In this document: positions 1,879 through 63,832 of the stretch, piece by piece
Position numbering within the stretch: the stretch's first letter is position 1
Layout of the letters: every line of letters begins with the position of its first letter
Origin: a virus
Direction: 5' to 3' (one strand)
DNA length: 64,000 bases
Virus record (IMG/VR): IMGVR_UViG_3300044641_001047
Location: 12,497-76,496 of that record
Made by a program: the position numbers and the translations under genes
The notes under the pieces: generated by a model
Told to the model about the DNA's origin: nothing
Database searches by the model: none
The model's input: the letters and a program-made list of their open reading frames with translations, nothing else

Positions 1879-4800
1879 TTAAAGCATACATATTTGGGTG
1901 ATGTCCCCTTTTTTCTCTTCGTCCATTGTGTTATCTAAGAAGACATCTAACTTCTCTATTACAGAATCTATTGGCTTACTTTTTCCTACAACTCTTGGGT
2001 AAAGAGTAGCTCCCCCAACAAGGTGTTTTTTTTCGTTAGTAGTTTTACCTAACACCATATACTTTCCTATTTTTCCATCTTTTGATATACTACCAAGAAT
2101 ATAAACATCAGAGTCTGTTTTAGTTCTAACTACAAGAGCTGAAGGAATAGATGAGTATTCTTCTAAATTGATATCAATTTCTTTATCAGGCTTTCCTACT
2201 TCATCAAAGTTTTTACGTTGTAAAAGGTTACTTCCACCAGGTCTCATCTCCCCAAATATTCTTAGGAATCTAAGCATATCCTCCCCCTCAAAGTACCTAC
2301 CATTAGCCATTTTCATTGCCTGCTCATGAAGATAATCAGAAATGCTTATAGGTTCTAGATCTTCAGCGGTTCTATCCATAGGTTGGGTAAGGAATCTTGG
2401 GGGTAACAAGTCTGCAAAGTTAAATGGAGTTTGCTTAAATCCATTGGCAATAAGTGTATGCATTGCTAATTTATTACCTAAAGTCTTGATATCTTCAACT
2501 CCTTTCTTACGTTCAGCTATTTCTTTTTCTGTTGCCCCCTTTCTAAGTCTTGGTAAAAACTTCTCAGGTCTGTACAACATATCAGTAAGGTCATTGATGA
2601 TTCTATCCTTCTCATTTACTGTATACTGTTGCTGAGCATCAAACTGCAAGCTTCTAAAAGTCTTACTATTCTTGTTATCAGGATCTTCAGTAATCTTTAC
2701 AAAGAACTCATTACCTGCAAGCTTAGGGTATTTCTTTAAAATCATGGACATCTGCTTAAGCAGTGTTGACTTGTTTTTACTTGTACGATAGTTCTCATCA
2801 CTATACCCTTTACCAAAAAATGCTTTGAGTGGAGAGTCCTGCCTTGTAAGAATTGTGAATATTATTGCAGAGTTTATATCTCTGTGCTGATCACTTGTAA
2901 ATGTATTAGTAGGTGGAGCTGCTATCTTTCTCAAAGTATTCTTAAATCCTATGAACTCAGATGATAATGTCATTGGGAACAGTATTGATGCTACCCCTAA
3001 TGTTTCAGATATCATTTTATAGTAGCCTCTCTGTAATCCATATGGAGAATCTTCATCAAGAACTTGTTCGATTATACTCTCTGACATATTTCTTCCGTAT
3101 AGAGCTATAGGGGCATTGTCTACAAATCCATCTTTAGGGTTTGCAAACTTTTCCATTCTCTCCATATAGGCCTGCATAGCTTCTACTCTATTCAAACCAT
3201 CCATGCTATCAGGAGTAATGACCTTAAACATTTCTACAATCTGTCTTCCTCCAGAGTACATCTTCATAAAGTTTCTTAAAGCTACTGCAGGGGGTAGAGT
3301 AAAATTCATTATATCCTCTCTAGACATTGCAGTAGTCCTTTCAATTCTTTTATAATTATTTGCTATCTCAGTCTCTGGGTTTATACCGTGTAGAGCAGCA
3401 GCTTGACGATACCCATTGTTAACCATTGCAAGGTTATTGTTGTACTTATCAGACATTATGTTTACAAAATCTCTGATGATAGGCTGGTTAAGGAAGAAGT
3501 GCATTAACTCTGTATCACCGTAGAAATTAATCCATAGAACTTCTACAGGGAAAGTAACTTCATTATCATTGATGATGTAGTGGAATGGATTCTTAGAAGC
3601 ATCCACGGCAGCATTAAGATATCGAGAGATAATTTTATCTGTAAATTCCAAGTGATCGTATGCTGCAAATGGGTTATCTACTTGAGTAAGAAACTTAGTA
3701 TTTATTTTCTCTCCTGCTATCTTAACAGCAAATGAGTCAAATAGATTTATGTCTAAGTGTTGAGCTACATTCCTTCCTGCAAGAGCATTAGACCACTTAC
3801 CTCTCAGCTTGTTACCAAGAAGGTTTCTAACAGCACTGTTGGTATGGTACATACCCCCTGTAAACATTGGGATATCTTCAAGGTCAGGCATTTTTTCAAG
3901 GATACTGTCTTTGATATTACCAAGTGCAGCTGTGTCCAAAGGGCTAAGAGTTTCAGAGAAGTGAATAGGGCTACTGAGTACAGCCTCCATTGTATCAATG
4001 AAGATATTATTAAGCTGCTTCTCATTTAGTTTTGTAACCAATTCAGGATTGCTGGCAAGTTCTGCATAATTAGCAGATTCTTTAACCATAACCCCATCCT
4101 TCATGCTAACCTCAGGGAAAAGCAAAAACATTTTATCGACGTCAAAGTCAGATCCCATAAGCTTAACAAGCTGTGGTGGGACTACAATTGCTTTAGCATA
4201 ATTATCAGGTAGGACAGCTTTAATCTTTAGAATAACCATAGATGCCTTATCCTGGTTGGGGATACGATAACCAATAATTCTTCTAAGCTCTTCTGGGATG
4301 TTATCTAAATTGATCTCCCCTTCAGGTAAGTTAAACTTTCTAAGTACATCAGCTCTTATCATTATCTCTGCATGTGCCAATCTGACTCCATACTTTGTAT
4401 TGTTTGGATCATCTTCAATCTCCAAGAACTTAAGGGTTTCATTAGTCTCAAACCCACCAAGAGCTGCAGTCTGCACAGCCTCTGTCCCAGATAGCCTTTG
4501 CTTAAATACATTGTTGTTGTATATGCTAAGCAAAGCTGATTGAAACTTTTTACCAAATACAGGGTAGTCAAGTGGAATTGCAAATCTTGGGATAAGAGTA
4601 TCAGGATCTATAGTGATATCAAGAGCATCTAGATAGTTCTGGCTCATATCTCTTTCGATAGCCTGCTTCTCAAGAATGGTACGTATATTTTTAAGCAGTT
4701 CTAGCTTAGCATTTATAAAATCTTCTGAGCTCTTAAGGTGACTGATATTAACCTTACCCTTAACCTTATGCCCTTCTACAAGATTAGCAATTGCTTTACG

Positions 4801-39883: not shown

Positions 39884-40690
39884 TTAAGATACTTCTTTGA
39901 GCCTTGCTCTCATTGTATTTACTTGACCAGAGTTCTTCTTATTCTTGAAGTAAACAATTGCATCTTTCATATCTTCTCCGATTGTTTCGTCTTGGAAAAT
40001 AACTTGATTTCCAATTCGACGGAGGATATCCTTTGCAACCATTTCTTCAATCTCTGCCTGAACTTCTAAGTTGTCGTCCATGCAGTATTTCAAGAATTTC
40101 TCTGGGTTACTTCCTTTGTAATCGTACAGGGTATTTTCGATTTCCATGTCTGAGAGTCTTTCTGGATCTCCGTCCACAAGTACTCTAAGCAACATTTTCA
40201 TCTTCTCGACGTTGCCAGTGAGTTTAATAAACTCTTTGTCAGCATCTTTTCTAACCTGCACTTTAGCATTCTTCTTAAGAAGGTCTTTCTGTGGATCGTA
40301 GATATAAAATCTTTTATTCGAATCCAGTTTCATTTCTTCTTCAGAAGTTGCCACATGTCTGTGCTTGAGGCACCACTTATAATAAATGTAATCCATTGCA
40401 TTAATTGGACTGCCATCATCATAAGTACCGATCTCAAGTTCTGCCCCTTCAAAAGGAACTTTAAGGCTAAGGCTAGCCCAGAAGTCTTTTGTTTTTGAAG
40501 GCCAATCTTGATGACCAGCTGGTACATCAATAAAGTTTTTCAATAATTTTGCTTCTTCTTCTCCGTCAACTCCTTTGAGTGGGAGACGATCTACATACAT
40601 AGATCCAAGTTTAACTTTTGCTCCAGCTCTGATTTCCTTTGGAAGGTGATTCAGAACTTCTTTGCGTCTAATAATAACTTTACGTTCCAT
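39884..40690 (-). CDS. Conserved crAss-like protein downstream of the major capsid gene
   Basis: 268 aa; FWASLSLKVP...PINAMDYI...RFYIYDP; conserved position. Confidence 0.65.
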   Translation of the reverse strand: MERKVIIRRKEVLNHLPKEIRAGAKVKLGSMYVDRLPLKGVDGEEEAKLLKNFIDVPAGHQDWPSKTKDFWASLSLKVPFEGAELEIGTYDDGSPINAMDYIYYKWCLKHRHVATSEEEMKLDSNKRFYIYDPQKDLLKKNAKVQVRKDADKEFIKLTGNVEKMKMLLRVLVDGDPERLSDMEIENTLYDYKGSNPEKFLKYCMDDNLEVQAEIEEMVAKDILRRIGNQVIFQDETIGEDMKDAIVYFKNKKNSGQVNTMRARLKEVS

Positions 40691-60622: not shown

Positions 60623-60830
60623 ATTGTAAATTAGGCTTCATGTAGCACGTACGATTAAATAGTGACTAGCAGTGATTAAATAAAAATAATATTTGTGGTC
60701 ATAGTGAAGGACAGATGATTGTGTCCCAACTACTATCCCCACAATAAGTGTGGTATCATGATGACTGTGTAATCAGTTGTATAACATGGTATCACACTTT
60801 ATTCCTTTGTAATCAATACCTATATATACA

Positions 60831-61067
60831 ATGGATTCTTTAGATGCAGTTATTATTCCAGTTACAATACTGGAATATGATACCTATGATGATGCTATGC
60901 TACACTTAAATGACCAAGGTGTTACTCACTTGGGTTGGCTTAACAGTGGTATTAGTATCCCTGAACATTATACATTTGAAAAAGTGTATTCTAATTGGTC
61001 AGGTTCTTCGTGTCTTTATTGTGATCCTATCTATAGAGTATCATACTCTGTAGACATGGGTGACTAG
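60831..61067 (+). CDS. Hypothetical protein
   Basis: 78 aa; preceded by TTTGTAATCAATA. Confidence 0.55.
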   Translation: MDSLDAVIIPVTILEYDTYDDAMLHLNDQGVTHLGWLNSGISIPEHYTFEKVYSNWSGSSCLYCDPIYRVSYSVDMGD

Positions 61068-61241
61068 CAGAGGAGATAACCAAACGTAACGTGGAACAAC
61101 TCATGAAAGCATAATGAGCCACACATAACAGGAGTTAGGCATTTGGAATCTACGGTTTTATACCTGGGGATTTTACGACTTTATACTGTTATTTATATTT
61201 GTAATCAATAACTTAAATCAATAACAAACACTTAAATCATC

Positions 61242-62754: not shown

Positions 62755-62763
62755 TCCCCTTTT
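62743..62763 (+). terminator. Terminator-like hairpin overlapping ribozyme P1
   Basis: AAAGGGG-CTTAGT-CCCCTTTT. Confidence 0.55.
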
Positions 62764-62820
62764 ACTAATGCAGCCAGGTAACACTGAAGGTCACAAGCCC
62801 TTTAATGCAGAGTGGTAAAA
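62760..62820 (+). ncRNA. Twister self-cleaving ribozyme, type P1
   Basis: P1 TTTTAC/GTAAAA; U|AA site (62766/62767); P2 TGCA/TGCA; GC; P3 CAG/CTG; P4 AAGG/CCTT with loop TCACAAGC; GA then GTG pairing with CAC (T1); GC/GC (T2). Confidence 0.88.
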
Positions 62821-62860
62821 CAATTTATTCATTTAATTTATTATTTAAATCATCAAAATC

Positions 62861-63466
62861 ATGATGAACAACACAATCAACAGTGGCTCGTTGCAGGGAT
62901 TGCAAGCGGGTCAAACCCTTTTACTCCAAGCTCGTAAGGTTAATGGAGACAAGATTCAATTGGAATTTGCTGAGATTGTCAAAACACAATCTAATGCAGC
63001 AAATCCACTTGCTCTATTTAACAAGTCAGACGACCGTTTCTCACAAGGCAATGGTGCACGTCGTGCTTGGTTAACTGCTGAAGCTAAGGATGCTTCAGTT
63101 TATCTCAACATCAACCTGATGGATGATGCTGACTGGCAAGTTGACCAAATGGGAAGAGAGATTCTCCCACTGAATGTCATCAATCCAGTAGCTCACATCA
63201 ATGGTGAAGCATTCCCATTGAAGGTGCAAGTTGAGGAGACTGTTACTCCTACGGATTGGCAGGCAAACAACATCCCAACTGCGGCTAAACGTCGTGGTAA
63301 AGATGGGGACTTCATCACTCACCAAGGTATGTATATCTTTGCTAACACTCGTGTAGTGTTTAACAAAGCTACTCACGTATTCCTTGAGGCTGATGCTGTT
63401 AAGTCTACTACAACTGGAGGTATCCGTGTAGGTGAAGACTTTGACTCTAGTCCGTTCTTCAGCTAA
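62861..63466 (+). CDS. Putative single-stranded DNA-binding protein
   Basis: 201 aa, beta-rich; acidic/aromatic C-terminus EDFDSSPFFS; early region. Confidence 0.45.
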   Translation: MMNNTINSGSLQGLQAGQTLLLQARKVNGDKIQLEFAEIVKTQSNAANPLALFNKSDDRFSQGNGARRAWLTAEAKDASVYLNINLMDDADWQVDQMGREILPLNVINPVAHINGEAFPLKVQVEETVTPTDWQANNIPTAAKRRGKDGDFITHQGMYIFANTRVVFNKATHVFLEADAVKSTTTGGIRVGEDFDSSPFFS

Positions 63467-63479
63467 TCATAGCTGAGTA

Positions 63480-63562
63480 AATCAGGTAGCTCAACTGGTA
63501 GAGCATAACGAGTTTTGTACTATTCTCGTTAAGGTGTGGGTTCGAATCCCACCCTGATTTCA
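63480..63562 (+). tRNA. tRNA-like RNA with enlarged, non-canonical anticodon arm (isotype undetermined)
   Basis: Acceptor AATCAGG/CCTGATT; D-arm GCTC-AACTGGTA-GAGC; T-arm GTGGG-TTCGAAT-CCCAC; anticodon arm 26 nt (7-bp stem, 12-nt loop). Confidence 0.7.
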
Positions 63563-63564
63563 TT

Positions 63565-63680
63565 AGTTGTAATAGTTTAATTGCTGGTAAACAAACAAGC
63601 CAGATTCAGGTGAAAAACTAATCCTGACAATTAAGTAGGAGTGAGATCCTATTATCCTACTCAAGGATACTATTGCAACT
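63565..63680 (+). ncRNA. Candidate multi-junction structured RNA
   Basis: 12-bp closing stem, nested three-way junction, additional hairpin and possible pseudoknot. Confidence 0.5.
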
Positions 63681-63832
63681 TACCTTATAAATCCTCCACA
63701 TTGCTTAGAGTTTAATTAAAGACAACGAACTATAATGAGTCTGAGGATGCTCATTGTTCGTTGTTTTTAATCAGGATGTTTTGTGTATGTACAGCTTACG
63801 GAACAATTTAATTTAATCTAAATCAATAACTT

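Follow-up and report, generated by a model that had tools for sequence, protein, structure and literature searches.

A conserved 116-nt RNA domain beside a phage tRNA-like element: a twister P5 arm that stands free of its ribozyme

What is the compact, multi-junction RNA that lies 3 nt beyond the 3' end of a tRNA-like element in an uncultured virus? The window analyzed here, a stretch of 64,000 nucleotides, makes up the final 64 kb of a contig of 76.5 kb from an uncultured virus; lakes and other freshwater sites are the source of the sequencing runs that contain this stretch. The RNA, here called the module, sits in an intergenic stretch 320 nt from the end of the contig. A preliminary description made from the sequence alone had taken it for a novel ncRNA or an element that processes the tRNA trailer.

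The locus

The neighborhood of the module contains the following features.

62762-62818, + strand: type-P1 twister ribozyme without P5 (Rfam RF03160, 48.1 bits, E 4e-10)
62861-63466: ORF of 201 aa, upstream of the tRNA-like element
63480-63561, + strand: tRNA-like element with an oversized anticodon arm (ARAGORN; Rfam tRNA model, 57 bits)
63562-63690, + strand: indel segment, found in the window and run X3; a contig of run X5 has TAT in its place, and related loci lack it
63565-63680, + strand: the whole module ("W arm"), 116 nt (fold z -4.58; 135.4 bits to covariance model R1)
63718-63773, + strand: intrinsic-terminator-like hairpin followed by a U run (-23.2 kcal/mol, z -6.53)
63833: start of the next ORF, downstream of the terminator-like hairpin

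The flanking genes are on the + strand, the same strand on which the module folds, and 37 unstructured bases separate the module from the terminator-like hairpin. The 201-aa ORF has no Pfam or PHROG match. Contigs of RNA run X15 cover only 62789-63394 of a relative, which corresponds to this upstream gene.

Fold of the module

The module folds as a closing helix of 11-12 bp (P1) that leads into a four-way junction of P1, P2, P3, and P4 around one unpaired U.

63565-63575, + strand: P1 5' strand, AGTTGTAATAG, paired with 63670-63680 in 7/7 sequences
63670-63680, + strand: P1 3' strand, CTATTGCAACT, in which G63675 forms a U-G wobble
63577-63634, + strand: P2 domain, a three-way junction with P2a and P2b on a 7-bp stem (63577-63583 / 63628-63634)
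63584-63603, + strand: P2a hairpin with an A-rich loop (CTGG/CCAG, 63584-63587 / 63600-63603)
63606-63627, + strand: P2b hairpin with an A-rich loop (TCAGG/CCTGA, 63606-63610 / 63623-63627)
63635-63652, + strand: P3 hairpin, GTAGGA-GTGAGA-TCCTAT (97.5% of cells paired, with double-sided changes at two pairs)
63635-63640 / 63647-63652, + strand: P3 stem GTAGGA/TCCTAT, from the seven-sequence alignment
63653-63669, + strand: P4 hairpin, TATCCT-ACTCA-AGGATA (three pairs changed on both sides; 95% of cells paired)
63653-63658 / 63664-63669, + strand: P4 stem TATCCT/AGGATA, from the seven-sequence alignment

On the + strand the minimum free energy is -35.8 kcal/mol (z -4.58), a value equaled by 0 of 200 shuffles, and the - strand fold is weaker (z -2.43). 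When the window copy and its six homologues are aligned with guidance from a covariance model, R1, 98.9% of cells are paired and nine pairs are changed on both sides, the 98.9% being a figure for an alignment fitted to R1. A MAFFT alignment, unfitted to the model, gives 95.1%, with seven pairs changed in both partners. On the model-guided alignment the observed covariation and pairing are matched by 0 of 500 shuffles, and in controls with slid partners pairing falls to 27-47%. The seven copies represent about four lineages and hence few independent events.

These changes are unevenly spread over the helices. P3 and P4 together hold five pairs with changes on both sides. In the homologues at loci L170 and L181, the P2 stem TTAATTG/CAATTAA becomes TCAAATG/CATTTGA, a double-sided change at two pairs. 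In P2a and P2b the stems are invariant in all seven copies and give no covariation signal. P1 varies in two ways only: the pair numbered 6/117, UA in the other six sequences, is the U-G wobble of the window, and L181 has one additional pair. Almost none of the unpaired junction bases are conserved in the module. Both the G-U pair that closes P3, which is conserved, and the U-G pair of the window P1 form only on the + strand; because G-U pairs function on that strand alone, we take the + strand to be the folded one. The preliminary description had reached the same preference from the single T-G pair of the closing helix, which is indeed compatible with the + strand only.

Much of the earlier fold is retained. 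Its 12-bp closing helix, AGTTGTAATAGT (63565-63576) with ACTATTGCAACT (63669-63680), is present, T63576 being either the 12th P1 pair (with A63669) or the sole unpaired junction base. The inner helix TTAATTG (63577-63583) / CAATTAA (63628-63634) and the CTGG/CCAG and TCAGG/CCTGA hairpins inside it also lie where they had been placed. The covariation supports this nested P1-P4 fold but not the third hairpin with a pseudoknot that had been drawn: GTAGGA/TCCTAC and ATCCT/AGGAT are paired in 72% and 71% of cells across the seven homologues, versus 97.5% and 95% for separate P3 and P4 hairpins. The supposed ATCCT/AGGAT pseudoknot is thus the ordinary P4 stem.

A candidate tertiary contact joins the loops of P3 (UGAG) and P4 (CUCA), with 27/28 cells paired. 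In L170 and L181 these loops become UGAC and GUCA, one G-C to C-G swap. Since a single swap underlies it, a touching of the two loops is suggestive at most. Taken as a whole, the module is a discrete, conserved, structured RNA domain, read from the + strand.

Homologues in twister P5 arms

The six homologues come from lake metagenomes and viral contigs, found by a metagenome scan with the 12-bp arms and a viral scan with an inner pattern.

L164:5858-5975: outer P5 of a live-looking twister (the L164 contig is also the L180 contig)
L174:693-810: outer P5 of a live-looking twister
L170:8-122: outer P5 of a live-looking twister
L181:2938-3054, - strand: outer P5 of a live-looking twister
L163:4748-4866, - strand: in a twister without the P4 catalytic hairpin
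L171:4080-4201, - strand: in a twister without the P4 catalytic hairpin

In the four live-looking twisters the module is flanked by ...CCCAAGG-GAGC on the 5' side and GAGTGCAGAGGG on the 3' side. The L181 copy is the same as G028:39935-40049, where it lies inside a twister P5; an earlier, unchecked description of that genome had placed a 14-bp helix, CAGTTTGTAATAGT, with TAGC/GCTA arms at 39933-40051. The flanks in L163 and L171 are TTTGCAT-taat and aa-ATGCAAA, which keep a P2-like pairing, and the entire twister P4 hairpin and the GGG are missing. Because these parts are gone, the L163 and L171 twisters cannot make the catalytic pseudoknots; each locus also has another twister, an intact one, about 170 nt downstream. 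Between these two copies of the module 0/78 stem positions and 13/44 loop positions differ, and the flanks, in a block spanning some 300 nt, agree at about 99% of positions, so that their intact stems say little about conservation. Within that same block the P2a and P2b loops differ at about 12 of 27 positions, as a result of either local replacement or fast evolution.

R1 was built from all seven sequences, window copy included. They score 113-144 bits, and the 135.4 bits of the window copy are a match by construction. Among 80 loci searched with R1, scores above 110 bits occur in the seven training sequences alone, and other twister P5 arms reach about 20 bits, via P1 alone. The window copy has every part of the R1 definition: P1 AGUUGUAAUAG/CUAUUACAACU, the four-way junction, a P2 with two hairpins, P3, and P4. 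R1 found no further copy in 22 additional viral loci, nor was any found in 29 whole viral records. The module pattern is absent from the genomes of 185,579 prokaryote species, blastn with the module gave no match in the INPHARED phage records, blastn and nhmmer recovered no copy by sequence in the fetched loci, and the exact-arm pattern has no match in viral contigs. Those 22 additional loci were the new ones among 24 returned by a relaxed P2b pattern. Two other patterns were set aside: three matches to an inner-helix pattern lie inside a coding region and are unrelated to the module, and most of the 118 matches to a loose P5-arm pattern, which lack helix extension or twister flanks, look like chance.

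The twisters that carry the module belong to a larger phage family. In many related contigs there is, once per genome, a pairing of GTTGTAATAG with its complement at a spacing of 50-120 nt, and most such pairs are flanked by ...TAATGCACCA-nnn-CTCACTTCCCAAGGGTGAGCA and TGAGTGCAGAGGGG. Typical features of a type-P1 twister are present in these flanks: the UAA cleavage motif, a P4 hairpin with the loop UCCCAAG, and a 3' GGG. The P4 helix is paired in 28/28 sequences, with changes at all five of its pairs, and pseudoknot T1 (3' GGG with loop CCC) is paired in 28/28, one CCA/UGG variant included. By eye, P2 changes from GCAC/GUGC to GCGU/ACGC, GUAU/AUAC, GUAC/GUAC, and GCAU/AUGC. Rfam RF03160 recognizes the same core motifs in the P5-less twister before the 201-aa gene, which lies about 750 nt upstream of the module on the same strand; its 48.1 bits fall below the gathering score of 67.2, and equivalent sites in relatives (L002:2899-2957 and L014:2895-2953) score 50-52 bits. 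Rfam gives no twister match for a P5-bearing member of the family (L018:25-160), and because of this the twister identity of the family rests on motifs and covariation.

The type-P1 twister has an optional P5 (Rfam RF03160; Roth et al. 2014, reviewed in PMC6154101), which occurs in about 1% of catalogued twisters (PMC6154101). In the Rfam alignment the P5 stem comes after P4 and before the 3' strand of P2, and because of this placement the closing helix of the module corresponds to the P5-base sequence of the phage family. We conclude that the module in the window represents, in free-standing form, a conserved domain of 116 nt that elsewhere forms the outer P5 of a phage type-P1 twister. P5 in this family accepts many unrelated inserts of 40-150 nt, and most of the others are weakly structured in their interiors (median z -1.1), compared with z -3.8 for the interior of the module.

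Other P5-type arms were seen in the same collection. Free-standing stem-loops with the same closing helix and no twister core occur at L004:1180-1282 and L008:2184-2313, with unrelated, weakly structured interiors; the former occupies the genomic position of an intact P5-bearing twister in L005 and L002. At the site matching 60803-61191 of the window, relatives have a P5-bearing twister or a free-standing P5 arm, and the window has a 78-aa ORF (60831-61067) together with other, non-coding sequence of about 125 nt.

Presence and absence of the module

To place the module among relatives, 27 related viral loci were gathered via the 201-aa protein. In most of the closer relatives the 201-aa gene is followed by a tRNA-like element whose anticodon arm differs greatly from one to another, and none of the 27 has the module at this site. 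The closest, L004 (93% protein identity), shares the terminator-like hairpin with the window; at this site its sequence is TTTCA-TAATCCTC, compared with TTTCA-(about 125 nt)-TAAATCCTC in the window. In run X3, an independent lake sample, a contig is identical to the window over 63425-63691, module included. A lake contig from run X5, of another study (depth 15.7), skips 63562-63690 and has TAT instead, joining 63561 to 63691; its flanks show no differences in the tRNA-like element and two differences onward to 64000. The module is therefore a recent presence/absence polymorphism, with an indel of about 125 nt, and insertion is the simplest reading because every outgroup lacks the module.

The module is single-copy per genome. 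No integrase, Y1 transposase, reverse transcriptase, or HNH gene was found in the phage genome (PF00589, PF01797, PF00078, and PF01844 all without a match), and comparison of filled and empty sites shows no clear target-site duplication.

No ribozyme core at the window site

At the gathering thresholds, a search of the whole window with Rfam gave the tRNA model and noise, with no family at the module site. With E raised to 10 over 63440-63800, only the tRNA model and noise appear, with no ribozyme, riboswitch, or HDV-family match, and RF03160 gives no match in the same interval at that limit. The novelty claimed in the preliminary description is in this respect confirmed: the module is a discrete conserved RNA outside Rfam. 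The role in tRNA-trailer processing is not, since relatives have the tRNA-like element without the module.

The module was also considered as a twister in its own right and rejected, as neither flank contains a twister core. The U-A cleavage site (UAA-GC..C) is absent on the 5' side, where the flank is the 3' end of the tRNA-like element, ...CCTGATTTCATT; the twister-borne homologues, unlike the window copy, carry TAATGCACC there. The twister P4 hairpin (loop UCCCAAG) and the 3' GCAGAGGG needed for T1 are absent from both flanks of the window copy, whereas the three homologues with full flanks have them. Compared with a type-P1 twister, the window copy thus shares the P5 domain (as seen in four homologues) and the closing helix of the P5 base, but it is without P1/P2, the U-A site, the P4/L4 loop, and the T1/T2 partners.

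A theta-type trailer ribozyme is likewise rejected. Theta ribozymes are minimal HDV-like motifs beside phage tRNAs, known from gut phages (PMC10879173), and the module shares their position, directly 3' (3 nt) of a tRNA-shaped element in a phage. Their fold is a nested double pseudoknot of HDV type, cleaved at the ribozyme 5' end beside the tRNA, whereas the covariation supports a fully nested junction for the module, which fits no HDV-like architecture. The module also comes from lake water rather than the gut and is dispensable for the tRNA-like element, which persists without it in relatives. The homologues of the module occur as peripheral twister arms, not as catalytic cores.

Possible roles of the module

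Three kinds of site are now known for the module: inside a live twister, inside one whose catalytic hairpin is missing, and, in the window, in a non-twister spacer between a tRNA-like element and an intrinsic terminator. Constraint appears to act on the module itself, because an 11-bp stem alone would close P5, yet the junction is conserved with compensatory changes. Our preferred explanation, to which we assign a probability of about one half, is that the module is a portable, non-catalytic RNA with a structure-dependent role of its own, here released as an RNA of about 210 nt. The role would most likely be the binding of a protein or of another RNA. A processing element would stand just 5' of the module both in live twisters (self-cleavage) and in the window (the tRNA-like element), and it is because live settings place the processing element there that we propose release of the module as the 5' part of the RNA. 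In the window, RNase P/Z-type processing of the tRNA-like element by the host, probably one of the Bacteroidota, would free the module, and the released RNA would end at the terminator. Arrival at the site would have been by recombination rather than transposition. More tentatively, the module may be an autonomous RNA launched by 5' processing in both settings, with the twister P5 serving as a docking slot for RNA cargo that lake phages exchange. The compensatory changes of the window lineage may predate its free-standing state and have arisen inside an unsampled twister. No targets complementary to the P2a and P2b loops were found in the window above chance.

The main rival holds that the module is a neutral passenger whose fold was shaped inside a twister P5 and which reached the 3' spacer as a recent by-product of recombination, with no function there. 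The insertion is recent and polymorphic, no relative needs the module, the P5 slot accepts many unrelated inserts, and the module family is small, all of which fit such an account. It is possible, although we consider it rather doubtful: the conserved junction and the compensation in P2, P3, and P4 would need another reason when most P5 inserts are poorly structured, and the module recurs in three different settings. Mobile DNA of the MITE type, with the 12-bp closing helix as terminal inverted repeats and a transposase acting in trans, would account for the repeat, for the presence/absence polymorphism, and for identical ends that enclose different interiors. The Correia elements of Neisseria are MITEs with hairpin-forming ends, and the module resembles them in its size of about 120 bp, terminal inverted repeats, co-transcription, and insertion polymorphism. 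It differs from them in being single-copy, without target duplication or transposase, and in the covariation of its interior. Because the module is single-copy, with no evident target duplication and no mobile-element enzymes in the genome, a transposon-like origin is quite unlikely; moreover, the ends that recur around different interiors are a ribozyme P5 stem, and the G-U pairs and compensatory changes indicate selection on RNA.

Three further functional readings have still less in their favor. An arm sensing a ligand or factor, in effect an aptamer adjusting the cleavage of twisters elsewhere and termination in this phage, would suit the compact junction, the possible loop-loop contact, and the terminator downstream. 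We regard it as very improbable, given that L004 and the X5 contig have the same terminator without the module, that no alternative pairing between P1 and the terminator is seen by eye, and that few unpaired junction bases are conserved and no Rfam riboswitch matches. A new class of self-cleaving or trailer-processing ribozyme is suggested by the placement 3 nt from the tRNA-like 3' end, as in theta ribozymes (PMC10879173). The chance of this is slight indeed: there is no family match at E 10, the helices are perfect with one junction base unpaired, the loops vary between copies, the tRNA-like element of relatives persists without the module, and the usual place of the module is a peripheral arm of another ribozyme. 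It would be equally surprising if the free module acted as a helper in trans by docking on the P5-less twister at 62762-62818, even though that twister lies about 750 nt upstream on the same strand and the genome lacks the P5-bearing twister that relatives have. Relatives pair the same P5-less twister with unrelated P5 arms or with none, and no complementarity or docking motif was identified. A CRISPR-repeat mimic (GUUG...CAAC arms) was rejected as well: across 185,579 species the pattern GTTGTAATAG-N10-40-CTATTACAAC occurs at 44 single sites, in no arrays, and none of the 44 is a twister.

Two further known systems resemble the module. P5abc of the Tetrahymena group I intron is an independently folding peripheral domain that can act in trans. 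Like it, the module is a self-contained accessory domain on a helix of a catalytic core, but the module also occurs without any core, and any effect of it on catalysis is putative. Small stable RNAs are co-transcribed with the tRNAs of phage T4 (species 1 and 2, or RNAs C and D), and the module may be likened to them as a structured RNA beside a tRNA-like gene, bounded by processing signals. Unlike RNAs C and D, it has a tRNA mimic as its neighbor and is a polymorphic insertion of recent date.

The usual view of small self-cleaving ribozymes is of minimal units, and the module is a conserved accessory arm with a defined junction fold. This twister arm outlasts the loss of its ribozyme and has recently entered an unrelated site next to a tRNA mimic. 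Should the arm prove to have an independent role, the P5 of phage twisters would carry functional RNA cargo, released by ribozyme or tRNA-like processing, which would give a handle on the abundance of structured RNA in the early regions of lake phages. If it is a passenger, it would still be a clear case of a modular RNA domain shuffling between phages.

Further observations on twisters and tRNA-like elements

Other P5 inserts in the twister family contain pieces that resemble a tRNA T arm: CTGG-TTCGATT-CCAG in L176:7486-7594 and GATGG-TTCAAGT-CCATC in L161:4846-4970 (- strand). Judged by their sequence, these suggest that P5 also carries tRNA-like fragments. A second form of the twister 5' half, ..TAATCAG(T/C)CTCCCAAGGGTGAGCA with 3' TGAGT(T)GCAGAGGG, occurs in L159, L150, L062, L081, L103:8424-8578, L176, and L169; without the TAATGCACC motif, it may be a distinct twister sub-variant. 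L103:8424-8883 contains tandem P5-bearing twisters about 275 nt apart, one with each form of the 5' half and with unrelated P5 inserts.

The tRNA-like element itself varies widely among relatives. The acceptor, D, and T arms are kept in L002:3622-3713, L005:3620-3701, L009:3626-3700, and L027:3620-3708, and the anticodon arms of relatives are 7-bp stems with loops of 12-22 nt or long hairpins. In L008 (about 3620-3660) the element is reduced to a simple hairpin with the acceptor stem retained. In the more distant L011:3600-3650, L013, L015, and L017 the place of the tRNA-like element is taken by a conserved hairpin some 45 nt long, CCCCTG-TAACTGAGTTCA(A/T)AG-CAAGG-AGCGAAA-CCTTG-CAGGGG, which has a 15-nt asymmetric bulge and matches no Rfam family. 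A 105-nt match to the Rfam tRNA model at L163:1848-1952 (- strand; 40.9 bits), uncalled by ARAGORN, may be another expanded tRNA-like element.
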